Positions 1-13,640 of a DNA stretch of 13,640 nt are shown here, one piece after another. The translations under genes and the position numbers were made by a program. Every line of letters begins with the position of its first letter. The stretch's first letter is position 1. Where the stretch lies: the NCBI GenBank assembly GCA_046757025.1, contig JBHHXN010000141.1:1-13640 (forward strand). Direction: 5' to 3'. The stretch is from a bacterium (GTDB lineage: Bacteria > Zhuqueibacterota > Zhuqueibacteria > Oceanimicrobiales > Oceanimicrobiaceae). The notes under the pieces are model-generated. The model was not told the origin of the DNA and searched no databases. It was given only the letters and a program-made list of their open reading frames with translations.

Positions 1-605
1 TGCCCCGCTTGCCTACTTTGAGCCGCCACCTCTGCTTCTCGCGGAGAACCAGCGGAGTCCCTTTTAGCTTTGCTTTGAATTCCAAATTCGTACCCCCGGT
101 CAAAGGCCCTTTTATTCAATTCCAGATAGCGCGCCGGCACGCTACCCGGAATGGCTTTTTTGAACGACGCCGCGGAAATCGTGCCCGCTACTGCCGAAAA
201 GAAACCGAGCATCACTAAATTCGCCAAGATTTTATTGCCTAACTCCTCGGCAAAACGCGTGGCTGGAATGGTGAATTTCTTTATGGCGTCGTTGACGGAT
301 GCGGTCTTCACCAGGTCTTCATCCACTAAAAGCACCCCCCCATTTTCCAGTTCTGGCAAGAACTTGTCGCAGGCATCCTGGGACATCGACACCAAAATGG
401 TTGGTTTTGTAATGTACGGATAAAGTACCGGTTCATCCGAGACCACTAGCTGTGCGCTGCAAGCGCTGCCCCGGGCTTCCGGGCCGAAGCTCTGGGTCAT
501 GGTGGCGTGCTTGTTGTCAAATAGGGCGGCGGCTTTACCAGCCAAGATACCGGACAGGATGACACCTTGTCCGCCGAATCCCGAAAATCTAATTTCCGTT
601 CTCAT
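1..605 (-). CDS. korC: 2-oxoacid:ferredoxin oxidoreductase gamma subunit (3' end runs off window)
   Basis: Manual translation from ATG at 605, overlapping the beta-subunit stop: MRTEIRFSGFGGQGVILSG...TQSFGPEARGSACSA...ANLVMLG...LNKRAFDRGY. It has the GxGGQG and GPEARG gamma motifs. No stop before position 1, which explains its absence from the ORF track. Confidence 0.92.
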   Translation of the reverse strand, partial: MRTEIRFSGFGGQGVILSGILAGKAAALFDNKHATMTQSFGPEARGSACSAQLVVSDEPVLYPYITKPTILVSMSQDACDKFLPELENGGVLLVDEDLVKTASVNDAIKKFTIPATRFAEELGNKILANLVMLGFFSAVAGTISAASFKKAIPGSVPARYLELNKRAFDRGYEFGIQSKAKRDSAGSPREAEVAAQSRQAG

Positions 606-1476
606 CAGCAACCTTCCCATAAGATTCATATTTTTCCCCAAAGACTTTACGAAACCGCTGATTCAGCGCGTCCATAAAAGTCGGACGCTCAGTGTCCACA
701 AATTTGCCAATAACGATCTTATCGCGATAGGCGATGTCCAACTCCCGCGTGTCTATGCCATGTTTGATCACACTGCTGTCGTGATAATATTTCAACTCAT
801 CCAATCCATCGCCCAGTCGATTTCGGCGCGAATAGAGAGTCGGACAGGGCGCGACAATCTCCACGAAGGAGAAGCCTTTTTTCTGCAAGGCTTCAGTCAT
901 CGATTTTGTGAGCCGCCGGATATGCAGCGCCGTCCAGCGCGCGACATAGACGGCGCCGCTGCTTTCAGCCAGAAAAGGCAAGTTAAAAGGGTGTTCAAAG
1001 CAACCGTAAGGGGACGTCGTGGTAGTGGCCGGTTCCGGGGTCGTAGGGGCCAACTGGCCGCCGGTCATCGCGTAGTTGAAATTGTTGATGCACAGCACGG
1101 TGAGGTCCACATTCCTGCGAGCCGCGTGAATAAAGTGGTTGCCGCCAATGGCGATGAGGTCGCCGTCCCCGCTGAAGACCACGACCTTCAACTCCGGATT
1201 CGCCAGTTTGAGACCGGTTGCGAAAGGAATAGCGCGGCCGTGGGTGGTATGGAACGAATCCAATTTAACGTAACCGGCGATGCGCCCGGAACAGCCGATT
1301 CCGGAAACCACCGCAATCTTGTCCAGAGGAATTCCTGCTTTCTCCAACGCCATCGCGAAGGCGGTTACGGCGGTGCCGATGCCGCAGCCGGGACACCAAA
1401 TGTGAGGCATCCGGTCCATACGCAGAAGACTCTCCATGGGATGGGTCGGTTGACCGGCGTGAATCGCTGAGTTCAT
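589..1476 (-). CDS. korB: 2-oxoacid:ferredoxin oxidoreductase beta subunit (TPP-binding)
   Basis: Motifs WCPGCG, SGIGCS, HGRA, GDGD...GGNH, NNFNYAMTGGQ and CPT. Start reassigned to ATG 1476, which has a GGAGG RBS and an ATGA overlap with the alpha stop. Substrate (2-oxoglutarate vs other 2-oxoacids) cannot be resolved. Confidence 0.93.
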   Translation of the reverse strand: MNSAIHAGQPTHPMESLLRMDRMPHIWCPGCGIGTAVTAFAMALEKAGIPLDKIAVVSGIGCSGRIAGYVKLDSFHTTHGRAIPFATGLKLANPELKVVVFSGDGDLIAIGGNHFIHAARRNVDLTVLCINNFNYAMTGGQLAPTTPEPATTTTSPYGCFEHPFNLPFLAESSGAVYVARWTALHIRRLTKSMTEALQKKGFSFVEIVAPCPTLYSRRNRLGDGLDELKYYHDSSVIKHGIDTRELDIAYRDKIVIGKFVDTERPTFMDALNQRFRKVFGEKYESYGKVADENGN

Positions 1477-2636
1477 TTTGTCGCCTCCTGAATGATTTTG
1501 AAAATTTCTTTGGGATCGTGCACCCAGCCGCCGGCGTGGGGCGCGAGGAAGACTTTGGCGTTGCCGGCCACGCACCGCTCTAACTCATAGACCATCTGTC
1601 CGAGATTAAGCTCGACCATGACAAACGCTTTTACTTTTTTGGCAAGCTGTTTAATACGTTTTTCGGGAAATGGCCAGGCGGTCAGAAGCCGGAATGACCC
1701 GACCCGCAAGCCCTTTCTTTTGGCCATTTCAATCGCTGGCAGGGACACTCTCGAACTTATGCCGTACGAGACGACCACGATGTCCGCATTTTCGACCCCA
1801 TCTTCTTCATATTGGATAATATCCTTGGCGTTTTTGTTGATTTTGTTTACAAGCCGGCAAACGCTCTTCTTCTGCACCTCGGCATTCATGGCCGGGTAGC
1901 CTCTCTCATCGTGCGTCAGACCCGTTACGTGAAATCGGTAGCCATCGCCGGCATTCACCATGAGCGGTATCATTCCGTTATCGCCGTTGACAGCGTAGGG
2001 TAAGTATTGGTCTTTAGGGCCGGCATACAATCGCCGGTTAGAGACATCGATTTTATCCGCTGGCGGAATCACGACCTTTTCGGTCATGTGGCCCACGCAT
2101 TCATCCATCATCACCAGAACCGGCACCCGATAGGTTTCCGACAGATTAAACGCCCGGACAGTCAAATCAAAGCATTCTTGCGGAGAGTTGGGGACTAGGG
2201 CGATGATTTCGTAATCTCCGTGTGAGCCCCAGCGCGCCTGCATCATGTCTTGCTGACCCGGCAGCGTCGGCAAACCCGTGGATGGCCCGCCCCTCTGGAC
2301 ATTCACGATGACGCAAGGCGTTTCAGTCATCACACCCAGCCCGATGTTCTCCATCATTAAAGAAAAGCCCGGCCCGGAAGTGACGGTCATGGATTTTTTC
2401 CCACCCCAGGAGGCGCCCAGAATGGCCGCTATAGAAGCCAGCTCATCTTCCATTTGGATAAAAATGCCGCCAACCAACGGAAAGCGCGCGGCAATTTTCT
2501 CCGCGACCTCTGTGGAGGGTGTGATCGGATACCCCGCAAAAAATCGGCAGCCGGCCGCCAACGCGCCCTCAGCGCAGGCATGATCGCCGTCTAAATAATG
2601 AGCTCCGGTCAAAACACCTTTGGGGTCAGGTTTCAA
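1473..2636 (-). CDS. korA: 2-oxoacid:ferredoxin oxidoreductase alpha subunit
   Basis: Motifs AGYPITPSTE, QMEDE, TSGPGFSLM, QRGGPSTGLPT and VELNLGQ. Likely start is TTG 2636 (GGAG just upstream, overlapping the end of delta). The ORF-track start is 2660. Confidence 0.93.
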   Translation of the reverse strand: MKPDPKGVLTGAHYLDGDHACAEGALAAGCRFFAGYPITPSTEVAEKIAARFPLVGGIFIQMEDELASIAAILGASWGGKKSMTVTSGPGFSLMMENIGLGVMTETPCVIVNVQRGGPSTGLPTLPGQQDMMQARWGSHGDYEIIALVPNSPQECFDLTVRAFNLSETYRVPVLVMMDECVGHMTEKVVIPPADKIDVSNRRLYAGPKDQYLPYAVNGDNGMIPLMVNAGDGYRFHVTGLTHDERGYPAMNAEVQKKSVCRLVNKINKNAKDIIQYEEDGVENADIVVVSYGISSRVSLPAIEMAKRKGLRVGSFRLLTAWPFPEKRIKQLAKKVKAFVMVELNLGQMVYELERCVAGNAKVFLAPHAGGWVHDPKEIFKIIQEATK

Positions 2637-2943
2637 GGATCTCCACCCCCTTTCCTGCATCCACCGTCATCTCGGGTATTGGCTGCTGGTCTTTTAATGT
2701 GACAAAAATCGAAAATTCAGGACAAATGATTTCACACAGTTGGCATTGGACACACTCGTTTGCTTTGACAACAACGGGGGGATGGTATCCCTTGGTATTG
2801 AAACCATCGGAGAGTTGCAAAACCTCTATGGGGCAGTATTCCACGCAAAATCCACATCCTTTGCACTGGTCTTCAAGGATGTGAATCACGCCTCGGGGAA
2901 CTTCAATTTTATCGGCATCCAAAGGTTTACGCCAGTGTTTCAC
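2626..2943 (-). CDS. korD: 2x[4Fe-4S] ferredoxin-like delta subunit of the 2-oxoacid oxidoreductase
   Basis: Two CxxCxxCxxxCP motifs (CKGCGFCVEYCP, CVQCQLCEIICP). GTG start with AAGGAG RBS. First gene in delta-alpha-beta-gamma order. Confidence 0.9.
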   Translation of the reverse strand: MKHWRKPLDADKIEVPRGVIHILEDQCKGCGFCVEYCPIEVLQLSDGFNTKGYHPPVVVKANECVQCQLCEIICPEFSIFVTLKDQQPIPEMTVDAGKGVEILET

Positions 2944-3055: not shown

Positions 3056-3652
3056 CTATCCATTATGAATTCGAATATCAAAGTCACCTATGTGATCCTC
3101 CATCAAATACCAGTAATCTTCTATGTCAAGGGTCATAATAATGAGGTTTTCTCGTTTACCGTGTGTATCGGTAACGTGCTTTCTGAGCGTGGCTTCTTTT
3201 CGGAACCCGAACCTTTCGAAGGCAGTGATCGCGGATTCTTGAGCTTCAACCATTTCAGCCTGAAGTTTGTGAATTTTGGCTTTCAAAGCATAAAAAAATA
3301 GTTCACGAACAAGAATTGTTCCCAGACCATTTCTTCGGTAGTTTGGAACGATCAGCACCCTGACCTCACCCAAATGGCGTTTCCAACCCATCTCTGCTTT
3401 AAATATCGTTGCAATCCCGATTATTTTGTTTTCATCAAACGCAAGAATGGGATAAACATGGACGTAATCTAAGTTGCCAAATCGACGTTCAACCTTTTTT
3501 CTGTCGGTCACATCAATGCGGAGAAATTGTCTATTCTCCTCAGGTATGGAGCGATAAAACTCCAGTAGCGCATCCAGGTCTTCCTTGACCATTAATCTTA
3601 ATGTTAATTCACTATTATCCTTCAAAGTTACTATCTTGGGATATTCTGCCAT
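3056..3652 (-). CDS. GNAT family N-acetyltransferase
   Basis: Acetyl-CoA motif A (VPNYRRNGLGT) and motif B (AITAFERFGF). N-terminus VTLKDNSELTLRLMVKED resembles the GNAT domain of Pat-type protein acetyltransferases. GAGG RBS. Confidence 0.88.
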   Translation of the reverse strand: MAEYPKIVTLKDNSELTLRLMVKEDLDALLEFYRSIPEENRQFLRIDVTDRKKVERRFGNLDYVHVYPILAFDENKIIGIATIFKAEMGWKRHLGEVRVLIVPNYRRNGLGTILVRELFFYALKAKIHKLQAEMVEAQESAITAFERFGFRKEATLRKHVTDTHGKRENLIIMTLDIEDYWYLMEDHIGDFDIRIHNG

Positions 3653-4080: not shown

Positions 4081-4161
4081 CTAACTCGGCGAAATCAGAG
4101 CGACAATCGACGATATTTCCTCGCTCAACGGATAACATACTCCGTAGGGGTCGTGTTTCAT
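4081..4161 (-). CDS. Candidate 26-aa small ORF or gene remnant
   Basis: AAGGAG-ATAAG-ATG; translation MKHDPYGVCYPLSEEISSIVALISPS*. No recognisable homology. Confidence 0.3.
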   Translation of the reverse strand: MKHDPYGVCYPLSEEISSIVALISPS

Positions 4162-4393
4162 CTTATCTCCTTACAATAAAACTGGACTGAGCGGTAACTG
4201 CCTGTCCCGGGAGCGGTAAATGGTAAACGATAATCGAAAGTCGCGCGAGCCAACTTCGCTCACTTATTCCCAACTGTCATGAGTCACTACACTTTCCAGA
4301 GTTGGTTTTCTGACAACTCTTTGCGGTTACCACCTTAACTGCCTTATACTGCAAGAGATAACACCAACCCTTTAATACCTTTTTTTACAGTCC

Positions 4394-4430
4394 TGTAATG
4401 AAACACTACAATTTGTCCTGATTCATTACA
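4394..4430 (+). promoter_or_regulatory. Tandem upstream activating sequences for a sigma54 enhancer-binding protein
   Basis: Two TGT-N11-ACA sites 20 bp apart: TGTAATGAAACACTACA (4394-4410) and TGTCCTGATTCATTACA (4414-4430). The outer arms TGTAATGAA/TTCATTACA form a perfect inverted repeat. Confidence 0.6.
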
Positions 4431-4477
4431 AGAACGCCTTTTCTAAATTCCTCATTTTGCATCATTTATTAATAAGC

Positions 4478-4490
4478 TAAGTAATTGATA
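4478..4490 (-). promoter_or_regulatory. Putative IHF binding site
   Basis: Minus strand TATCAATTACTTA matches WATCAANNNNTTR and lies between the UAS and the -24/-12 element. Confidence 0.6.
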
Positions 4491-4520
4491 TTGCTAAAAT
4501 AAGTCACAGGACCGATTTGC

Positions 4521-4535
4521 TGGCATTCTCTTTGC
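4521..4535 (+). promoter_or_regulatory. sigma54 -24/-12 promoter
   Basis: TGGCATTCTCTTTGC has exact GG-N10-GC spacing, about 70 bp upstream of ATG 4604. Confidence 0.7.
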
Positions 4536-4603: not shown

Positions 4604-4981
4604 ATGAAATCAATACTACTTGTCAGTGCTGATTTTAAAGCGAGTGTCCAGTTGGTGAAAAAGGTGCGGAGATACGGTTTGGATGGGTATTGGGTCAATA
4701 CTGGCCGAGAGTGTCTCGAAATTCTAGAAAGTAGTGAGCTTTATGCCGTGCTAATTGATAACTCTATTATCGACATAAATGGGGTCATTTTACTGGAATT
4801 AGTGATTAAGTTAAAGCCGAAAATAAATTTGATATTTGTCAACAGCAAGCAAAAACCGAAGATCGAATCTCAGGCTCGTCAGGCTGGGATTATTTATTAC
4901 ACGACGGACATGCGAGATCAAGAGATTACTCGCGTCATCTCGGAATTAGCGACAAAGCATCCACAACAATATAAAATGTAA
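4604..4981 (+). CDS. Stand-alone atypical receiver (CheY-like) domain protein
   Basis: Receiver-fold pattern MKSILLVSAD...TGRECLEIL...AVLID...NGVILL...LIFVN...ARQAGIIYY. Start reassigned to ATG 4604 because the track start at 4517 lies at the promoter. Confidence 0.75.
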   Translation: MKSILLVSADFKASVQLVKKVRRYGLDGYWVNTGRECLEILESSELYAVLIDNSIIDINGVILLELVIKLKPKINLIFVNSKQKPKIESQARQAGIIYYTTDMRDQEITRVISELATKHPQQYKM

Positions 4982-5038: not shown

Positions 5039-7498
5039 GTGAAAATCAGAAAAATCTTCTATAGATATTGTACTGCAATCCTATTAATTGGCGTGGTATT
5101 TTGGTCGTGCAAAGACCAATTTATAGTATCTTCACCTACGCTCACAGTGACACTCACTGCCACCCCTGTATTCGGAGAAGCTCCCCTCAGCGGAGTAGAT
5201 CTTACCGCTCAGATTAGCGGGGGCGGCAAAGGTGCCGTCACCTACCGATTTGATTGCACGAGCGATGGAATTTTTGATGTGGAGACAACCACCGATGACG
5301 AGACGTTTACTGCTGTCGACGTGTGTAGCTATGAGAATCCCGGGACGTACACAGCAAGAGTCGTAGTGGAACGTGGCGATATGTCTTCAAATGCAACCAT
5401 TACCCTTAATGTTGCAGCACCATCGCCCTCTCAGACTGCAGAAGATAGCATCGTCGTTTCCATGGAAGACAACTTTTTTTCTCCGAAAGAAGTGACTGTG
5501 AAACCCGGTACGAAGATCATCTGGCTCAACGTTGGTCAAAGACCGCATACATCGACAAGCGACGATGATCTATGGGATTCAGGAACCATCAATAAAGGCG
5601 AGACCTACAGTTGGATAGTTCCTGAGGAGACTCAATCGGGAGCCAGTTACCCGTATTATTGTGTGTTTCATGGGGCTAAGGGTGGAATAGGAATGGCAGG
5701 TTTGATTAATATAGACGACGGAACCGGGACACCGCTATCTGACACAGTGAATGTTTCCATGAAGGATAACTTTTTCTCACCGAAAGATGTAACCGTTGAA
5801 CCCGGAACAACGATTCTTTGGAAAAACTTTGGACTCATTGCGCATACCTCCACAAGCGATGACAATATTTGGGATTCCGGTACAGTTGGACAAGGGGAGT
5901 CCTACGCCTGGAAGGTTCCGGCAGACACACAAATGGGCGTTGATTTTCCTTATTATTGTATCTTTCACGGAGATCCAGGCGGTGTAGGAATGGCGGGTAC
6001 TATCCATGTCAGTCCAGGAGGGCCAACGCTCTCTGTAGCATTGACCGCCGAACCGGCTGCTGGAGAAGCGCCGTTGCAGGGCGTCGACCTGACGGCTCAG
6101 GTCAGCGGCACGGCCACCGGTTCAATTACCTACCGTTTTGACTGCACGGGCGACGGCGCCTTTGAGCATGAGTTTACCGGCAGCTCCGATATTTATACCG
6201 CTGTTGATGTGTGTGGTTACGACAGCGCCGGTAGCTATACGGCGAAAGTCGTGGCGGAACGGGAAGGTTTAACGGCGGAAGCCACAACGACGCTGACTGT
6301 TGATGAGCCACCGCCTCCACCGACCGGCGGAGAGATGACGGTTTCGATGAAGGATAACTTTTTTTCACCGCGAGAAGTGACGGTGAAACCGGGCACGAAG
6401 ATTGTCTGGCCCAATGTGGGGGCCAGACCTCATACATCGACGAGCGACGACGGCGTCTGGGACTCCGGCACGATTAATACCGGTCAGTCCTTTAGCTGGA
6501 CCGTGCCTCAGACCGCACAATCTGGCAACGATTTTCCTTACTACTGTGTTTTCCATGGCGCCCAGGGCGGTATTGGCATGGCCGGATTGATTCATGTTGA
6601 TGAAGCGCCGCCAACAGGGCCAACGCTGTCCGTTGCTTTGACCGCCGAACCGGCTGCTGGAGAAGCGCCGTTGCAGGGCGTCGACCTGACGGCTCAGGTC
6701 AGCGGCACGGCCACCGGTTCAATTACCTACCGTTTTGACTGCACGGGCGACGGCGCCTTTGAGCATGAGTTTACCGGCAGCTCCGATATTTATACCGCTG
6801 TTGATGTGTGTGGTTACGACAGCGCCGGTAGCTATACGGCGAAAGTCGTGGCGGAACGGCAAGGATTAACGGCGGAAGCGACGGCGACGATCACGGTAGA
6901 TGAGCCGCCCCCGCCGCCGACGGGCAATGAAGTAACGGTTCAGATGAAGGACAACTTTTTTTCGCCCCGGGATGTTGTCGTTCAACCCGGGGTCAAAATA
7001 ACGTGGGAAGCTGTCGGCCGGAAAGACCACACCTCGACCAGCGATACCGGCATCTGGGATTCGGGTAGGTTGGCCCCGGGTGGTTCGTATAGTTGGACGG
7101 TTCCTGCAAATACTCAAGAGGGTACTAACTTCCCTTACTACTGTGTCTTCCATGGAGACAGAGGCGGTAAAGGGATGGCCGGCACCATTCATGTAAGTAA
7201 TGATAGTACGCCACCCCCGGTAGTCAGCGATACGGTTATAGTAACGGTTTCAGGGTCTTCCTTCAGCCCGGAAAAGGTAGAGATAGAGCCGGGGACCACC
7301 GTGCTCTGGAAATTTTCTGGCGCCACCCACAATGTGACCTTCGAAGACGACGAGGAGACGCCACCCGGAGGTAATATTCCGGATTCGCCGCCAGGTTCTG
7401 AAGTGGCGCGGATATTCCCGGCTGAAGGCGACTACGATTATGAATGCACTTTGCACAAAGGTCAGGAAGGAAGAATTCGAGTGCGAAATGAAAACTAA
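5039..7498 (+). CDS. Lipoprotein with five cupredoxin (type-1 Cu) domains and three PKD-like domains
   Basis: Lipobox-like VVFWS-C24. Four domains with HTSTS...YYC(V/I)FH-x7-M and a fifth with HNVTF...CTLHKGQ. Three PKD-like repeats (GEAPL.GVDLTAQ...YRFDC..DG...VC.Y...G.YTA.VV). Pro-rich linkers. Confidence 0.88.
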   Translation: MKIRKIFYRYCTAILLIGVVFWSCKDQFIVSSPTLTVTLTATPVFGEAPLSGVDLTAQISGGGKGAVTYRFDCTSDGIFDVETTTDDETFTAVDVCSYENPGTYTARVVVERGDMSSNATITLNVAAPSPSQTAEDSIVVSMEDNFFSPKEVTVKPGTKIIWLNVGQRPHTSTSDDDLWDSGTINKGETYSWIVPEETQSGASYPYYCVFHGAKGGIGMAGLINIDDGTGTPLSDTVNVSMKDNFFSPKDVTVEPGTTILWKNFGLIAHTSTSDDNIWDSGTVGQGESYAWKVPADTQMGVDFPYYCIFHGDPGGVGMAGTIHVSPGGPTLSVALTAEPAAGEAPLQGVDLTAQVSGTATGSITYRFDCTGDGAFEHEFTGSSDIYTAVDVCGYDSAGSYTAKVVAEREGLTAEATTTLTVDEPPPPPTGGEMTVSMKDNFFSPREVTVKPGTKIVWPNVGARPHTSTSDDGVWDSGTINTGQSFSWTVPQTAQSGNDFPYYCVFHGAQGGIGMAGLIHVDEAPPTGPTLSVALTAEPAAGEAPLQGVDLTAQVSGTATGSITYRFDCTGDGAFEHEFTGSSDIYTAVDVCGYDSAGSYTAKVVAERQGLTAEATATITVDEPPPPPTGNEVTVQMKDNFFSPRDVVVQPGVKITWEAVGRKDHTSTSDTGIWDSGRLAPGGSYSWTVPANTQEGTNFPYYCVFHGDRGGKGMAGTIHVSNDSTPPPVVSDTVIVTVSGSSFSPEKVEIEPGTTVLWKFSGATHNVTFEDDEETPPGGNIPDSPPGSEVARIFPAEGDYDYECTLHKGQEGRIRVRNEN
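6041..6859 (+). repeat. Intragenic direct repeat: identical 222-bp copies at 6041-6262 and 6638-6859
   Basis: Base-by-base comparison; offset 597 bp; encodes the cores of PKD-like domains 2 and 3. Confidence 0.9.
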
Positions 7499-7655: not shown

Positions 7656-9500
7656 ATGAAAAAGTACGTAATTTTAGGTGTGATTGCGGCATTGTCAGTA
7701 ACCATGTGGCTGGTGAGCTGCAAGAGCAGTAAATCACCAACCGGGCCCGACCCGTCGCCTTTCAAGAAGGCATCGGATTGGGTAGCCGGTGTAGATTGGG
7801 ATACCAGGACGGTTGTGACCATGAACATGGTCGAATCGGGCTCCGCATTATCGTTCAGTCCCAATAACCTTACCTTCGAAGCCGGCAAACCCTATGTTCT
7901 AAAGGTTGTGAATCCAGCAGGGAACGCCAGCAAGCACTATTTTGCCACCCAGGAAGTGTTTCCGGATTTTTACAAATCCATCGCAACCCGCAAGATTGAG
8001 ACGGCAGACGCTGAGTACAAGGCGCCTTATTTCCGGGCTGTAGAATTGCTGATCGGCGGCGAGCTTGAGATCTACTTTGTGCCGGTTCTTGCTGGAGAGT
8101 ATGACTTCCTGTGTACGATTCCTGGACATGCTGCTGCCGGAATGACCGGCAAGATCACCATTACCGGCGGCGAAGGCTATGAATTAGATTTGGAGGTAGA
8201 CCCCAGTTTTGATACCGGTCTGATCACCGATCCCAGAACCTCCGGTTCGCATGAAGTCTGGACGACTGCTCGGGAACTTACCGTTGAGATGGTTGAAAAT
8301 GCCGACGGCTCTTTGGCCTACAGTCCATCTAATTTGAATTTGATGGTGGGCAAAGGATACAAAATCAACATCGTGAATGCGGCCGGACATGTGAGTAAAC
8401 ACTACTACACCGCAGCCGAGTTTTACAAAACGACGGTCACGCGGAAGGCTGAAGATGGGTATGCCGAGATAAAGATGCCCTACATGAAAGCCGTAGAGCT
8501 GCTGATTGGCGGCAAAACCGAACTCTTTATGGTGCCGACCAAAGTTGGAACGTACGAAGTATTCTGCACCATTACCGGACACAGAGCCGCGGGCATGGAA
8601 GGACTCGTCATAACAGTGGCGGATGCGCCATCGCCTTTTGTCAACGCATCAGATTGGGTGGGCGGTGTGAATTGGGATGAAAAAGAAGAGGTGACGATAA
8701 ACATGGTCGAATCGGGCTCCGCATTATCGTTCAGTCCCAATAACCTTACCTTCGAAGCCGGCAAACCCTATGTTCTAAAGGTTGTGAATCCAGCAGGGAA
8801 CGCCAGCAAGCACTATTTTGCCACCCAGGAAGTGTTTCCGGATTTTTACAAATCCATCGCAACCCGCAAGATTGAGACGGCAGACGCTGAGTACAAGGCG
8901 CCTTATTTCAGGGCCGTCGAATTGTTGATCGGCGGCGAGCTTGATATCTACTTTGTGCCGGTTATCGCCGGAACGTATGACTTCCTGTGTACGATTCCCG
9001 GCCATGCCGCAGCCGGAATGACCGGAAAGATCGTCATTACCGGCGGCGCAGGGTATGAGTTAGATTTGGAAGTAGACCCGGGTTTCGATACCGGTCTGAT
9101 CACCGATCCCAGAACCTCCGGTTCGCACGCAGTATGGTCGACTGCTGAAGAACTCACAGTCAACATGGTTGAAAACGCCGACGGCTCTCTGGCTTATGAT
9201 CCGCCCAATTTGAACCTGACGAAAGACAAAGGTTACAAAATACACATCGTTAATGCAGCCGGGCATGTGAGTAAACACTACTACACGGCCTCTGAGTTCT
9301 ATAAGACCACGGTTACGCGTAAAGCTGAAGATAACCACGGCGAGATAAAGATGCCCTACATGAAAGCCGTCGAGCTGTTAATTGGCGGCGAAACCGAACT
9401 TTTTATGGTTCCGACTGTGGCAGGACAATTCGAGGTATTCTGCACCATCACCGGCCACAGAGCCGCGGGCATGGAAGGACTCGTCATCGTAGTCGAGTAA
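7656..9500 (+). CDS. Lipoprotein with four cupredoxin (type-1 Cu) domains (duplicated two-domain unit)
   Basis: GAGGAGG RBS; lipobox WLVS-C. Four KHY(F/Y)...CTI(P/T)GH(A/R)AAGM motifs, i.e. a C-x4-H-x4-M loop as in rusticyanin, auracyanin and CopI-type cupredoxins. 292-aa internal repeat. Confidence 0.9.
   Translation: MKKYVILGVIAALSVTMWLVSCKSSKSPTGPDPSPFKKASDWVAGVDWDTRTVVTMNMVESGSALSFSPNNLTFEAGKPYVLKVVNPAGNASKHYFATQEVFPDFYKSIATRKIETADAEYKAPYFRAVELLIGGELEIYFVPVLAGEYDFLCTIPGHAAAGMTGKITITGGEGYELDLEVDPSFDTGLITDPRTSGSHEVWTTARELTVEMVENADGSLAYSPSNLNLMVGKGYKINIVNAAGHVSKHYYTAAEFYKTTVTRKAEDGYAEIKMPYMKAVELLIGGKTELFMVPTKVGTYEVFCTITGHRAAGMEGLVITVADAPSPFVNASDWVGGVNWDEKEEVTINMVESGSALSFSPNNLTFEAGKPYVLKVVNPAGNASKHYFATQEVFPDFYKSIATRKIETADAEYKAPYFRAVELLIGGELDIYFVPVIAGTYDFLCTIPGHAAAGMTGKIVITGGAGYELDLEVDPGFDTGLITDPRTSGSHAVWSTAEELTVNMVENADGSLAYDPPNLNLTKDKGYKIHIVNAAGHVSKHYYTASEFYKTTVTRKAEDNHGEIKMPYMKAVELLIGGETELFMVPTVAGQFEVFCTITGHRAAGMEGLVIVVE
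7824..8909 (+). repeat. Intragenic direct repeat: identical 210-bp copies at 7824-8033 and 8700-8909
   Basis: Base-by-base comparison; offset 876 bp, within a larger diverged duplication. Confidence 0.9.
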
Positions 9501-9571: not shown

Positions 9572-9612
9572 AGAAATTATTTAATAAAAGTGATTAAGTG
9601 TATCGCAGATTC

Positions 9613-10056
9613 ATGAAAGTTCATCTCCAGATTATTCATTTATTCATAGCGGTGCTTTTTGTGTTTCAGCAAAGCCCGTTCTTTTGGTTGGGGTTTCAAA
9701 AGGAGGATTCCGTAGCTTGTTCACGTGGAGAAATGGGCTCCTGCTGCCGCGGTTCTGGAAACGGCGAGGTGCGATGCAAGAGTGGAGAACCTGATGCTGA
9801 TGAAGGAATGTGCTATGTGGCCAGTTCATGCCATAATGATTCAGAACCGAATATGGTTGTGGAAATATTCAAACCCTATCTCTCAGTGCCTTTCTGCACA
9901 CAAATGCCCTATACGGGGAAATCGTTGAACTTTCACTGTGATTTAGAGATTTATTCAGATGTCAAACTACCGTGTCACGAAAAACCTCCTGAGGAGTCGC
10001 TCAGGTTTAGCTCATACTCTTATCCTTTAATGTATATGAACGACAAACGTGTGTGA
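9613..10056 (+). CDS. Cys-rich exported/membrane small protein, candidate metal-responsive leader
   Basis: N-terminal hydrophobic helix, Cys cluster (C-x7-CC...C...C-x5-CH) and late CHEKPP motif, directly upstream of a beta-barrel gene. Start is ATG 9613 or GTG 9598. Confidence 0.6.
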   Translation: MKVHLQIIHLFIAVLFVFQQSPFFWLGFQKEDSVACSRGEMGSCCRGSGNGEVRCKSGEPDADEGMCYVASSCHNDSEPNMVVEIFKPYLSVPFCTQMPYTGKSLNFHCDLEIYSDVKLPCHEKPPEESLRFSSYSYPLMYMNDKRV

Positions 10057-11104: not shown

Positions 11105-11146
11105 TATTATTGCAGACTTTTGCACTTTTTTGCAAAAAAATTAAAT

Positions 11147-11401
11147 TGCAAAAATCAAATAGCAAAATGACAATACAAAAATTAAAAACTACCGGACAGC
11201 AGATGTCCGGATACCAGGCCAACAATATTGTGCTGTTGTATAATTAAAGAAGCAGTAACGAACAGCACATAAATTAAGTTATCAGAGAATCTTATTCTGT
11301 GTCAATTTCAATTCTGTGGGCTACTTTTTTCGCAGCACTTGAGTTCAAGTTTATATTTAGATTTGTCATTTTACATTTTCATCTTTGATTTTGCATTTTG
11401 C
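11147..11401. repeat. Imperfect long inverted repeat with A-rich/T-rich, roughly heptameric arms enclosing small hairpins
   Basis: AAAATCAAA (11151-11159) pairs with TTTGATTTT (11384-11392); AAAATGACAA (11164-11173) pairs with TTGTCATTTT (11363-11372). Internal stems CCGGACA/TGTCCGG and TGTGCTGTT/AACAGCACA. Confidence 0.55.
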
Positions 11402-11540
11402 GGCTTGCCGCGCTGGGATAGGAATTGTAAATAAATGGTTGCCATGCAAGAATTGACTAGGCGAGGGCGTCTGCGTGAGCATCTGGGGAGTTTTCTTTCA
11501 GACACTAACTACTTTGTAGTGATCCGAGCTGAAAATTAAT

Positions 11541-11735
11541 GTGGCTACCCCCCAAAAATTGGGATTGAATGAAGCAATAAGTCCATACAAAACAATAAGT
11601 TATATAATACAAAAAAATTAAAATATTCAATTCTGATTCTACACAGTTTCTAACTGTGTATGTATCGCATTTGTGCCTAAACACGGTTGCAAACCGTGTT
11701 GGATCATGCTAATTCAAAAAAATGGGGGGTAGCCA
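11541..11735. mobile_element. MITE-like non-autonomous element
   Basis: Perfect 13-bp TIRs TGGCTACCCCCCA (11542-11554) / TGGGGGGTAGCCA (11723-11735), flanked by direct repeats GAGCTGAAAATTAAT (11526-11540 and 11736-11750). No transposase ORF. Confidence 0.82.
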
Positions 11736-11753
11736 GAGCTGAAAATTAATTTC

Positions 11754-11782
11754 TTGACTTTTTAATCAAATTTATATATAAT
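11754..11782 (+). promoter_or_regulatory. sigma70-type promoter for the cytochrome c operon
   Basis: TTGACT-N17-TATAAT, about 160 bp upstream of ATG 11941. Confidence 0.7.
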
Positions 11783-11940
11783 AGACGCCTATTAAAATAA
11801 TGTCCTTAACTTCCACAGCTCTGATCAACCCGCTCAATCCAAATTAGACTCCTGGTTACCGAAATTCTCAAAGAAATGCAGAGTTGAGAAGATTTGTTAC
11901 AAAGACTGTATCAACTTAAAATCGTATTGAGGGAGGGATT

Positions 11941-12864
11941 ATGACCGATCGAATAAAATATACCCCGCTGCTTTTTTCTCTGCTGATTTTGCTGCAGGGT
12001 CATCCCGAAGCGCTGTTTAGTCAGGGACAAACGGAGGCTGCAGCAGCCCTTGTCCGTGGCGAGCAGATTTACCGAGGGGCTTGCGCGCCCTGTCACGGAG
12101 TAAATGGCGATGGCAAGGGACCGTATTATGAGGCGCTAACCCCCAAGCCTCGTAATTTCACAACCGGAAAATTTAAGTTTCGCACCACATCTTCCCGGTC
12201 GGTGCCAACTGATCAAGACCTCTTCAAAACGATATCAAAAGGGTTGCCCGGGACGTTCATGCCCGCCTGGGAAGATCTGCTTTCTGAAAAGGATCGGATG
12301 GCTTTGGTTCAGTACATCAAGACTTTCTCAAAAAGATTTGCGAGATCTGGTGATTCATTCGAACTAATTGAAGTGTCCAATGAGGTTCCCTACTCGCGTG
12401 ACAGCATCATCAAGGGTAGGAAGGTGTATAGAGATCTGGAGTGTGCAAAATGTCACGGAGATGAGGGCCGGGGTAATGGCCCCTCAGCCAAGGATCTGGA
12501 AGACGAATGGGGTTATCCAATCCGCCCTCGTGATCTTACAAAAAGTTGGGAATTCAAAGGCGGAATTAGCAGAAAGAAGATTTACCTGCGACTGATGAGT
12601 GGGTTATCCGGTGCACCCATGCCATCCATGGCAGAGAGTTTCGTTCTTGATGAAGAGATCGATGACATCAAAATCAAGATCGAAGATGAGGAGGAACTCA
12701 CGGCTGAGGAGCAGCAGAAGTATGATGCGGCAATGGCCGAGATACGCGAGAAGGTATGGCATCTTACTAATTTTGTGAGATCCCTTTCAGGAAGCCCGAG
12801 CTTACTTTACCGTTTGTTTGTTGAGGATACTGAAGTAACCAAACAAAGGAGTGAGGAAAAATGA
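11941..12864 (+). CDS. Periplasmic diheme cytochrome c
   Basis: Signal peptide; CAPCH and CAKCH; PRNFT..KFKFRTT and PRDLT motifs; candidate Met axial ligands in MPAW and MPSM; GAGGGAGG RBS. Confidence 0.9.
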   Translation: MTDRIKYTPLLFSLLILLQGHPEALFSQGQTEAAAALVRGEQIYRGACAPCHGVNGDGKGPYYEALTPKPRNFTTGKFKFRTTSSRSVPTDQDLFKTISKGLPGTFMPAWEDLLSEKDRMALVQYIKTFSKRFARSGDSFELIEVSNEVPYSRDSIIKGRKVYRDLECAKCHGDEGRGNGPSAKDLEDEWGYPIRPRDLTKSWEFKGGISRKKIYLRLMSGLSGAPMPSMAESFVLDEEIDDIKIKIEDEEELTAEEQQKYDAAMAEIREKVWHLTNFVRSLSGSPSLLYRLFVEDTEVTKQRSEEK

Positions 12865-13346
12865 AGGCTAAATTACTTGGGGACATATCATATCTTGCGG
12901 GACTAATCTTGATCTGCATGTTTATATGGGTTTCTTGTAGAGGGGATGGCGTCGGTTTGACCGAAAGCGGCGACTTGCCCACTGAAGGCCCTTTAAGCTT
13001 TGCCAGTCAAATTCAACCTATCTTCGACGCTAATTGCACACGCTGTCATACGTCTGGCGGCGTTGGTTTCAATGCCACGGGCGGGAGCCAGAATAACGGA
13101 TTGGACTTAACCTCTGGGAATTCTCATGGAAGATTGGTAAATCAGCGGACTTTTGAGTTGTCGAATGTACAGCCGAGATGGCGCATACTTCCGAATGAAC
13201 CCGACAGCAGTTACGTTGTACAAAAAATCACCTCTTCTTCACCCAAATTCGGAAACCGTATGCCGTTGGATGGACCGCCCTATCTTTCGCAAAGTCAAAT
13301 TCAATTGATTAGAGATTGGATTGAACAAGGTGCGCCAAATAACTAG
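12861..13346 (+). CDS. Lipoprotein monoheme cytochrome c (planctomycete cytochrome c-like domain)
   Basis: ATGA overlap with the upstream gene; lipobox IWVS-C; FASQIQPIFDANCTRCH...RMPL...IRDWIEQGA. Confidence 0.85.
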   Translation: MKAKLLGDISYLAGLILICMFIWVSCRGDGVGLTESGDLPTEGPLSFASQIQPIFDANCTRCHTSGGVGFNATGGSQNNGLDLTSGNSHGRLVNQRTFELSNVQPRWRILPNEPDSSYVVQKITSSSPKFGNRMPLDGPPYLSQSQIQLIRDWIEQGAPNN

Positions 13347-13359
13347 GAGGAGGGAAGCG

Positions 13360-13640
13360 ATGACTAAGAGTTTAGGCAGTATTGTAATAGTTATTGTTTT
13401 ATTACTTGAGGTTCTTGTTTTTGAAACTTTGCCCGCTCGCGCCGAACCCTATCTGGCGATTCGTACGGGATTTAAATGTAGTCAATGTCACGTAAACCGC
13501 ACCGGAGGCGGCAAACGGACGGCCTTTGGCGTCATCTACGCTCAGACCAGGCTCTATACCAAAATCATTCAATCTGCTAAACGGTCCAGCTTTTTTGACG
13601 GGAAATTGAGTAACTCGGTCTCAATTGGAGCCAATTTTCG
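13360..13640 (+). CDS. Cyc2-like monoheme cytochrome c, probably porin-fused (partial, runs off window)
   Basis: Manual translation after an AGGAGG RBS: MTKSLGSIVIVIVLLLEVLVFETLPARA-EPYLAIRTGFKCSQCHVNRTGGGKRTAFGVIY...VSIGANF. Signal peptide with AxA, then a P-x-x-A-x-x-TG-x-x-CxxCH motif near the mature N-terminus, as in Cyc2. The barrel lies outside the window. Confidence 0.65.
   Translation, partial: MTKSLGSIVIVIVLLLEVLVFETLPARAEPYLAIRTGFKCSQCHVNRTGGGKRTAFGVIYAQTRLYTKIIQSAKRSSFFDGKLSNSVSIGANF

Follow-up and report, generated by a model that had tools for sequence, protein, structure and literature searches.

The closest described counterpart of the locus analysed here is the rus operon of the acidophilic iron oxidiser Acidithiobacillus ferrooxidans, for which the available text of PMC13741234 gives the gene order cyc2-cyc1-cup-coxBACD-rus. 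With this operon, as excerpts of PMC13741234 and PMC9592645 describe it, our locus shares a monohaem-porin fusion, a dihaem cytochrome c, and two kinds of cupredoxin, one of them with a rusticyanin-like loop. Rusticyanin is described as an electron reservoir in the accessible part of PMC9592645, electron transfer is reported for the complex of AcoP with a dihaem c4 in that of PMC5982212, and Cyc2 is defined in passages of PMC8406198 by a signal peptide, a single N-terminal CXXCH, and a fused porin.

The locus lies in a DNA stretch of 13,640 nucleotides, here called the window, and its centrepiece is a gene with a GTG start that encodes a mosaic of PKD-like, long-loop cupredoxin, and terminal cupredoxin domains (Table 1). 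We observed this architecture together with complete ligand sets, domain folds, a conserved gene neighbourhood, and a matching genome distribution. A sequencing artefact or a wrong reading frame was ruled out by homologues of 61-75% identity in other genomes.

Table 1. Features of the cassette in the window (K, PKD-like domain; C, long-loop cupredoxin; T, terminal cupredoxin).
Feature	Position	Strand	Details
Predicted cassette promoter, sigma-54 type (-24/-12)	4521..4535	+	motif match
Free-standing receiver-like protein encoded at the head of the cassette	4604..4981	+	PF00072 E 3.6e-5, below cut-off
PKD/cupredoxin mosaic, predicted lipoprotein, 819 aa	5039..7498	+	order K-C-C-K-C-K-C-T
Predicted lipoprotein signal peptide ending at Cys24	5039..5110	+	sequence; equivalent Cys in 11/11 N-termini
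K1, two-Cys PKD/Ig-like domain (C73, C96)	5135..5416	+	PF00801 stretch 38-125; own HMMs
C1 cupredoxin	5444..5716	+	H170/C208/H211/M219
C2 cupredoxin	5741..6013	+	H269/C307/H310/M318
K2, PKD/Ig-like domain (C369, C392)	6020..6304	+	model vs PKD 4xed Z 9.3, rmsd 2.5, 89 aligned; 2c4x Z 9.2
C3 cupredoxin	6329..6604	+	H465/C503/H506/M514
K3, PKD/Ig-like domain (C568, C591), recent K2 duplicate	6617..6901	+	vs 4xed Z 9.8, rmsd 2.2, 91 aligned
C4 cupredoxin	6926..7201	+	H664/C702/H705/M713; model vs azurin 1a4a Z 9.6, rmsd 2.2, 92 aligned
T, terminal plastocyanin/amicyanin-like cupredoxin, Gln axial	7229..7489	+	H764/C803/H806/Q809
Predicted lipoprotein with four C-x4-H-x4-M cupredoxins (rusticyanin/auracyanin-like loop)	7656..9500	+	PF00127, 4 stretches
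Small Cys-rich protein, no family	9598..10056	+	homologue precedes barrel gene in G001
Predicted outer-membrane barrel, Phenol_MetA_deg transporter-like; N-terminal CxxC, His-rich loop	10049..11104	+	
Dihaem cytochrome c, two invariant Met	11941..12864	+	PF00034 75 bits
Monohaem cytochrome c, predicted lipoprotein	12861..13346	+	
CxxCH-plus-porin-like fusion, 5' part (contig end cuts gene)	13321..13640	+	full-length paralogue P0053

The earlier note had read the order of the mosaic as lipobox-PKD-Cup-Cup-PKD-Cup-PKD-Cup-Cup, and this was borne out by a motif census, our own HMMs, Pfam, and fold searches. Pfam scores exceed their cut-offs for Cupredoxin_1 (104 bits), Copper-bind (88), and PKD (37), while whole-protein scores against the NCBIfam models for plastocyanin (75.3 < 87.85), halocyanin (65 < 93.8), and amicyanin (29.2 < 110.2) lie below theirs. 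Folding the whole protein from its single sequence gave a poor model (mean pLDDT 45.9) that was usable for the K2 and K3 parts only, and a three-domain model reached a pTM of 0.42 with low confidence at the C4/T linker. The poly-Pro linkers that had been proposed exist in that EPPPPPTG is present, but it occupies only two of the seven inter-domain linkers; across the family, the Pro-rich linkers differ in length, and the spacers vary in number and position.

The type-1 ligand set His...Cys-x-His-x-Met is complete in C1-C4, each of which would bind one type-1 Cu. All four share the C-x2-H-x7-M loop with intact ligands as the earlier note had it, but the x7 spacing is hardly special, since it is present in 173 of the 555 cupredoxin segments of our hit set. 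The fifth cupredoxin differs in type, which had been missed: T is 27-36% identical to the other four (57-74% among themselves) and has a short C-x2-H-x2-Gln loop in which Gln809 replaces the axial Met. Models of C4 and T match the Greek-key fold of azurin, plastocyanin, and amicyanin, with PF13473 and PF00127 above cut-off, and matches of T include plastocyanin 7zqe (Z 12.2, rmsd 1.7, 84 aligned), 5fc9 of N. maritimus (Z 12.1), and amicyanin 1aac (Z 11.9); C1-C3 were assigned to the fold because they are 57-74% identical among themselves and with C4. While the His, Cys, and His of T are invariant and the axial Gln is found in 9 of 11 aligned homologues, the axial place as such is variable and can be taken by Gln, Met, or His (P0187) or be absent (L074). 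This variability would also fit a non-redox or open site, an observation against reading the mosaic as an electron carrier. A lower potential is predicted for the Gln site than for the Met sites.

A single stretch by itself scores 37.3 bits against PF00801 (cut-off 23.5), and models of K2 and K3 match PKD chains with Z 9.3-9.8, tied with other Ig-like folds. Two conserved Cys per unit had been proposed, and indeed 265 of 277 ungapped homologous units (283 aligned) carry both; because they are co-conserved, the pair likely forms a disulfide. The suggested D-x-x-x-D-G turn is likewise present, but Ca binding by it appears doubtful because position 3 is mostly Thr (169 of 283 units), which clashes with the Dx[DN]xDG motif of Ca-binding turns. 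At the N-terminus, a Cys follows a hydrophobic stretch in all 11 sequences inspected, but the F-W-S-C24 of the mosaic itself is atypical of the lipobox consensus, and the residues after the Cys differ among homologues (KDQ, GDK, RDT, DTF, DEG).

Relatives of the mosaic hold two to seven cupredoxins per chain, and the same C-T pair ends every complete one (CT, KCT, KCCT, KCCCT, KCCKCKCT, KCCKCKCKCT, and KCKCCKCKCKCT). Duplications are lineage-specific, comprising C3-5 in G004 (support 99/97) and C1-2 in L074 (99/93), and PKD2 and PKD3 hold an identical run of 222 nt. The count of five cupredoxins in the window carries a caveat from this run and from 11 other letters at 6581-6653 in contigs of three runs from one study, which may reflect strain variation or the collapse of one further unit. 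These letters resemble neither PKD2, with which they agree at 2 of 6 covered places, nor the C63 paralogue, to which blastn gave no match (10 of the 11 places compared), and read depth across Cup3 is only about 1.1-1.25x that of the flank. The runs with the mosaic are hydrothermal-vent metagenomes (three runs, one study), with no RNA runs among those listed as containing its sequence.

The architecture, which the earlier note did not recognise from any characterised protein, is indeed unusual: only 6 of 199 stored domain-bearing proteins fuse the two-Cys PKD with these cupredoxins. Within the phylum, the PKD-cupredoxin unit occurs in 4 of 167 genomes; these four are kin of one family and not independent, and five more genomes match one cupredoxin only. 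Our literature search, with thin coverage of subscription papers, found no description of a PKD/cupredoxin architecture. In the hit lists, the modules belong to three separate protein families and are fused only in the small family of the mosaic. K units are 54-65% identical in uncharacterised tandem-PKD proteins without cupredoxins, some of them labelled Ca. Wildermuthbacteria; C domains are 41-51% identical in uncharacterised poly-cupredoxin proteins, and T is 55-62% identical in uncharacterised T-repeat proteins with Big_2 domains. At least three cupredoxins are present in 101 of 112 cupredoxin-only matches, though this count comes from a list whose ranking favours repeats. Judged by sequence, only the fusion is rare, with the long loop, the two-Cys PKD module, and poly-cupredoxin strings each common elsewhere.

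A redox or Cu role, as the earlier note had suggested, is strongly backed by gene context. Counterparts of the receiver-like gene head the cassette in G001, G004, and G013. The single sigma-54 motif match in the window is at chance level when taken alone (0.87 expected), but 6/6 tested family loci that contain the cassette head have such a match upstream of it, against 0/5 other regions; the match is identical between the window and G004, and genes for a sigma-54 activator and a sensor kinase flank relatives (L022; similar ORFs elsewhere). Scans for sigma-70 promoters (18 found vs 12.8 +/- 4.6) and terminators (9 vs 8.5) stayed at chance level. The rusticyanin-loop protein has the same genome distribution as the mosaic (4 of 167), and its PDB matches are auracyanin and rusticyanin, yet with 73 bits against TIGR03095 (cut-off 146.7) it falls short of a true rusticyanin orthologue. 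The barrel downstream (Atlas feature score 0.98, TM 0.78-0.80; family on 17-57% of cluster members) may be a copper entry route. With a barrel that may take up metal and a Cys-rich protein, the operon is as compatible with copper handling as with electron transfer.

The genes for the dihaem cytochrome, the monohaem cytochrome, and the haem-porin follow the mosaic in all six same-family loci with its 3' end (window, L022, L016, L017, L018, and L021). Both CxxCH motifs of the dihaem protein as well as M77 and M197 are invariant in 14/14 sequences, so that its haems are likely His/Met-ligated. Among eight close metagenome loci, four have the dihaem gene beside or near the mosaic in shuffled gene order (L070, L071, L073, and L074, of which L070 and L071 look like one organism), and the other four, which span 1.9-3.2 kb, contain no gene of the trio; no match to the dihaem or haem-porin proteins was found in 42/42 loci of more distant cupredoxin proteins. 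The mosaic is accessory because the trio also occurs without it (L062, L063, and L065; L066 begins just before the dihaem gene). In G001, where the cassette is split over two contigs, both of which break off within the mosaic gene, it is flanked by Rieske/cytochrome b/multihaem genes on one side and by a bd-like subunit and cytochromes on the other. Genome G000 (94.8% complete) encodes two aa3-type subunit I proteins, with its coxA genes on contigs other than that of the window, and queries for NosZ over the cut-off, NirK, cytochrome bd subunit I, and RuBisCO had no match in it.

The truncated haem-porin product matches P0053, which has 531 homologues, at 70%, and its family occurs in 6 of 167 genomes that include all four with the mosaic. 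A single CxxCH is present in 117/120 homologues and a C-terminal Phe in 109/120, and Atlas neighbours by features include Porin_O_P and BBP2 clusters. The family thus has the signal peptide, single N-terminal CXXCH, and fused porin of Cyc2, but its consensus is A-E-P-Y-[IL]-A-V-R-T-G before CXXCH, where Cyc2 has AXPXFAR[Q/K][T/Y], and V-N-x-T-G-G-G after it, where Cyc2 has PXL. On these motifs the haem-porin was ruled out as a Cyc2, and it matches the Cyc2-motif protein of L022 with only E 0.017. That protein, found near the cassette in relatives, matches in 112 of 167 genomes and therefore marks no special metabolism.

On balance, we consider it probable that the mosaic both carries single electrons and stores them, as a tethered member of an envelope redox chain that also comprises the dihaem cytochrome, the monohaem lipoprotein, and the haem-porin. 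Counting against this reading are the loci with the trio but no mosaic, the kinship of the four genomes, the four close loci without cytochrome genes, the missing Cyc2 motifs of the haem-porin, and the lack of a RuBisCO match in G000. The K domains, with their likely disulfides, would form a stalk from which the cupredoxins hang, leaving the Cu face free for docking partners because both termini of the cupredoxin fold lie away from Cu. A spacer measures about 4 nm compared with an electron-tunnelling limit near 1.5-2 nm, which makes a conducting stalk unlikely; in an extended chain, the gap between neighbouring Cu sites would be too wide for electrons to hop directly, so that they would move by domain swinging and exchange with cytochromes. 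The C-T pair may be the working head, with extra K-C units adding reach and capacity, and electrons would likely flow inward from a high-potential outer-membrane donor to aa3-type oxidases as in the rus chain.

Instead of carrying electrons, the repeats could soak up, store, or deliver envelope Cu as a buffer or loading platform that supplies copper oxidases and protects from vent metals, a role reportedly proposed for CopI or CupA-type cupredoxins. Freely expanding copy number would suit such a capacity, as would nine predicted Cu sites over two adjacent genes, the vent origin of the three runs, and the operon context of a barrel with CxxC and a His-rich loop next to a small Cys-rich protein. 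However, matches to CopI models are weak (NF051440 36.5 bits, far under the cut-off of 280), the barrel is missing from L022, L017, L018, and L074, which keep cytochromes, no neighbour is as constant as the dihaem cytochrome, and no Cu ATPase, Cus, or Sco was recognised among 36 neighbour proteins scanned. We regard this explanation as unlikely, although a chaperone-like role is also suggested for AcoP in the available part of PMC10804444. Less likely still, the mosaic might be an outer-face lipoprotein whose adhesin-like PKD rod exposes Cu sites to minerals or dissolved metals and supplies the haem-porin from outside. Adhesin and S-layer domains are among the fold matches of the PKD units, tandem K units occur in proteins that have signal or membrane segments but no cupredoxins, a disulfide would suit an exposed protein, and excerpts of PMC11429942 describe predicted-extracellular cupredoxin-domain proteins induced on magnetite in Sideroxydans; yet the residues after the lipobox Cys vary, and minimal homologues without any K domain (L070 and L073) indicate that a stalk is not needed for function. 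A rigid wire of packed domains with Cu-to-Cu hopping, as a copper analogue of multihaem cytochromes, is highly improbable because metal-free spacers increase the Cu-Cu distance, spacer and linker geometry varies, and the three-domain model is poorly defined at the C4/T linker, even though chains have up to seven sites, two site types could set a potential gradient, and spacer-free C-C tandems exist.

Multicopper oxidases and copper nitrite reductases likewise have several cupredoxin folds per chain, and the top Foldseek and VIA matches are extra cupredoxin domains of 9cck and 6hbe; an identity as multicopper oxidase or NirK was ruled out, with no HxH or HCH in 819 aa and a whole-chain TM of about 0.25 at an rmsd above 13. 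Single-domain type-1 cupredoxins (plastocyanin, amicyanin, azurin, and the purple cupredoxin 5FC9) share the fold (Z 9.6-12.5, rmsd 1.6-2.3) and the ligand order His-Cys-His-(Met/Gln), and auracyanin D has the axial Gln of T according to passages of PMC10804444, whereas the mosaic has a His-to-Met spacing of 7 and five domains per chain; AcoP matches the fold only remotely (Z 8.6). The parts of the mosaic are small and expressible and offer natural tests of copper-site chemistry, including an uncharacterised His-x7-Met loop of very wide occurrence in metagenomes and a domain with axial Gln, Met, His, or none.

By gene content, the cassette, which combines genes for a haem-porin, a dihaem cytochrome c, and cupredoxins, is best read as a rus-operon-like envelope chain. 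Compared with the rus operon, its cupredoxins are multiplied (5 + 4 domains) and predicted to be lipid-tethered, it adds a monohaem lipoprotein and a second barrel under predicted sigma-54 control, and it has no oxidase genes: the contig of the window ends in the haem-porin gene, and the paralogous locus L022 continues without them. A tentative and rather unlikely extension is that the mosaic represents a length-tunable copper counterpart of multihaem conduits. Its two to seven lipid-anchored type-1 Cu sites, headed by a Gln-ligated one of low potential, would bridge or buffer electrons between the respiratory chain and an unstudied haem-porin family, so that an uncultured lineage could draw on reduced metals or minerals in habitats that are not acidic. 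Such a system would escape surveys that look for metal-oxidation genes by motif, and its design of a tethered, expandable poly-copper carrier with a haem-porin without Cyc2 motifs would differ from known envelope electron conduits, which are multihaem cytochromes or single soluble cupredoxins.

The 819-residue protein encoded by the ORF is a real mosaic of two-cysteine PKD-like domains (K), long-loop cupredoxins (C) and a terminal cupredoxin (T), and it is rare as a fusion. A motif census, purpose-built HMMs and Pfam concordantly recovered the domain order claimed in an earlier note, K-C-C-K-C-K-C-T. The ligand pattern claimed there, His followed by C-x2-H-x7-M, holds for C1-C4 (57-74% identical to each other), but the fifth cupredoxin T is of another type with 27-36% identity to C1-C4 and the loop C803-x2-H806-x2-Q809. 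In an alignment-based structure prediction of K3-C4-T (pLDDT 77, pTM 0.42), K3 resembles PKD chains (Z 9.8), C4 resembles azurin (Z 9.6), and T resembles plastocyanin, amicyanin and the N. maritimus cupredoxin (Z 11.9-12.2). A multicopper-type oxidase was rejected because a sequence motif check found no HxH or HCH in the protein and whole-chain matches to multicopper oxidases reached a TM of ca. 0.25, which argues for a string of separate domains. Both cysteines are kept in 265 of 277 ungapped homologous K units, so the disulfide proposed previously is likely; the D-x-x-x-D-G turn is also present, but its suggested calcium binding is uncertain because the third place is usually Thr when compared with the generally known calcium-turn motif.

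Homologue searches yielded 319 stored proteins. One or more of the three modules occur in 199 of them (81 only K, 112 only cupredoxins, 6 both). Fusions with this kind of PKD domain are thus rare, whereas long loops and poly-cupredoxin strings are common: in hit lists biased towards repeat proteins, 101 of the 112 cupredoxin-only proteins hold at least three cupredoxins (maximum 12), and the x7 loop occurs in 173 of 555 cupredoxin segments. Our literature search found no description of the long loop or of poly-cupredoxin strings, though supplementary lists could name such proteins, and several independent designs appear undescribed. Among them are the very large secreted-type proteins P0177 and P0020, in which Cys-containing spacers separate as many as 12 long-loop cupredoxins (3670 aa).

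A search of 167 genomes of the phylum recovered the K-C unit in four (G000, G001, G004 and G013), all of one family, with a second copy in G000 on contig C63 and two 3' halves in G013. Outside this family, K is closest to tandem-PKD proteins (54-65%), among them some with the label Ca. Wildermuthbacteria, T to T-repeat proteins with Big_2 domains (55-62%), and C to C-repeat proteins (41-51%); judged by sequence, their nearest kin are three different protein families. Complete homologous chains always end in C-T and comprise CT (loci L070 and L073), KCT (stored protein P0195), KCCT (stored protein P0187), KCCCT (locus L074), KCCKCKCT (the window), KCCKCKCKCT (G004) and KCKCCKCKCKCT (G000 C63). 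A tree restricted to the 31 C domains of this series (T and outside proteins excluded; 13 of 28 inner branches open) places duplications inside lineages. Of the 11 sequences aligned, 9 carry Gln as the axial residue of T, P0195 carries Met and L074 has none; in P0187 it is His. A Gln in this place usually means a lower potential. An excerpt of PMC4059628 supports tuning of the cupredoxin site by its axial ligand and by the length of its loop. In the C63 paralogue, the second Cys is missing from one K unit, and the database protein (P0002) begins 27 codons late and so misses the lipoprotein signal.

The number of repeats counted in the window may be wrong by one unit, because a run of 222 bases is identical in K2 and K3 and, over the C3-K3 junction, the contigs of three runs show 11 differing letters. 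Six of ten compared differences are silent, and they represent either a strain allele or a collapsed extra unit. The three DNA runs holding the stretch belong to one study labelled hydrothermal vent metagenome, and one may be the source itself.

Coordinates of features in the window and at related loci
Location	Strand	Feature
Window 3-2943	-	ORFs resembling 2-oxoacid:ferredoxin oxidoreductase subunits (by inspection)
Window 3056-3652		GNAT acetyltransferase
Window 5039-7498	+	Mosaic predicted lipoprotein
Window 6581-6653		C3-K3 junction, run-contig differences
Window 7656-9500		Tetra-cupredoxin lipoprotein: two-domain unit twice (copies ~88% identical), rusticyanin-like loops
Window 11105-11940		Gap without genes
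Window ~11540-11770		94.5% identical to a stretch of contig C185
Window 11507-11815		Run depth ~250
L021:3233-9943, L062:4959-11001		Downstream module: cytochrome bd-like subunit I, dihaem, monohaem and EB_dh-domain cytochromes
L022:2587-3147 and 4098-4535		Cytochrome P460-domain lipoprotein and another single cupredoxin, end of paralogous cassette
L022:7462-11133 (G000:C63)		Mosaic paralogue: 5 K, 6 C, 1 T
L123:2-5221 (G001:C183)	-	Secreted-type protein, 1740+ aa, open at contig end

In all six same-family loci that include the 3' end of the gene, genes for a dihaem cytochrome c, a monohaem cytochrome lipoprotein and a CxxCH-porin fusion (haem-porin) lie downstream, either immediately or with at most three genes in between. 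Among eight close metagenome loci, possibly non-independent given a shared prefix in their record names, four have the dihaem gene adjoining or near the mosaic in differing orders, and four on short contigs (1.9-3.2 kb) have none of the three genes. The 42 loci examined for more distant cupredoxin proteins yielded no dihaem or haem-porin gene, and one of them has a monohaem-like match within a large ORF; a further genome locus, L026, combines one C domain with dihaem and haem-porin genes that lie next to it on the opposite strand. The neighbouring lipoprotein of 614 aa, which has four rusticyanin/auracyanin-like domains, shares the mosaic's distribution (the same 4 of 167 genomes), and the haem-porin is found in 6 including these, a co-occurrence weakened as proof by the kinship of the holders. 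The two-domain unit of the 614-aa protein is also a mobile module, since the L123 protein carries it (76% identical) inserted between unrelated repeat domains.

L062, L063 and L065 have the trio but no mosaic (twice with a rusticyanin-loop protein in front), which makes the mosaic accessory. Upstream of the cassette head, a sigma-54-type site is present in 6/6 family loci tested (probability at most 0.03 per locus in single-base shuffles), and five other regions checked have none; in relatives, sigma-54 activators and sensor kinases adjoin the cassette. G001 has a Rieske/cytochrome b/multihaem set before the cassette and a bd-like subunit with cytochromes after it, and G000 has genes for two aa3-type subunit I proteins, of which one scores over the CoxA cut-off. 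We take the bd-like module of L021 and L062 to be reminiscent of those in nitrite and manganese oxidisers. The window's first two entries in the table are divergent from the cassette, and none was seen beside it in relatives; identity to C185 and run depth suggest a small repeated element in the gap.

From architecture, ligands, folds and neighbourhood, we somewhat favour the mosaic as a tethered carrier and reservoir in envelope electron transfer resembling the rus chain of Acidithiobacillus ferrooxidans. Predicted to be anchored through Cys24, it would hold one redox copper per cupredoxin, and the constant C-T head would likely contact partners. An Ig domain is ca. 4 nm long, both ends of a plastocyanin-type fold lie away from its copper, and electron tunnelling needs less than ca. 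1.5-2 nm, which argues for K units as a stalk and cupredoxins as side beads with free docking faces. This geometry favours a tethered carrier and reservoir over a rigid wire. That the protein instead buffers copper seems unlikely, that it is a surface-displayed stalk slightly more so, and a rigid wire is very improbable given the Ig span against the tunnelling limit.

P0053, a full-length haem-porin paralogue, retrieves 531 relatives (E 0.001 or better). Language-model features give it porin-type neighbours, and searches of Pfam and NCBIfam assigned it to no family. Its homologues have one CxxCH in 117/120 and a terminal Phe in 109/120 cases. It shares the Cyc2 layout but lacks AXPXFAR and PXL, the Cyc2 motifs in the excerpted text of Keffer et al. 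(PMC8406198). A second protein with these motifs lies upstream in L022, L016, L074, L124 and L125. Iron oxidation is not thereby demonstrated, because its family matches 112/167 genomes and the function of cluster 3 is called most uncertain in the same excerpt (PMC8406198). The available part of PMC10732223 treats the metal-cycling potential of KSB1 with no tie to the present genome.

The rus chain is the closest worked-out system. There, as far as the source extracts go, Cyc2 passes electrons to rusticyanin and dihaem Cyc1 and on to an aa3 oxidase, with rusticyanin doubling as a reservoir (PMC13741234, PMC9592645), and AcoP and the dihaem cytochrome exchange electrons (PMC5982212). The operon explains the mosaic better than sequence alone does, and its system is a variant, itself new, of porin-cytochrome/cupredoxin envelope electron transfer.
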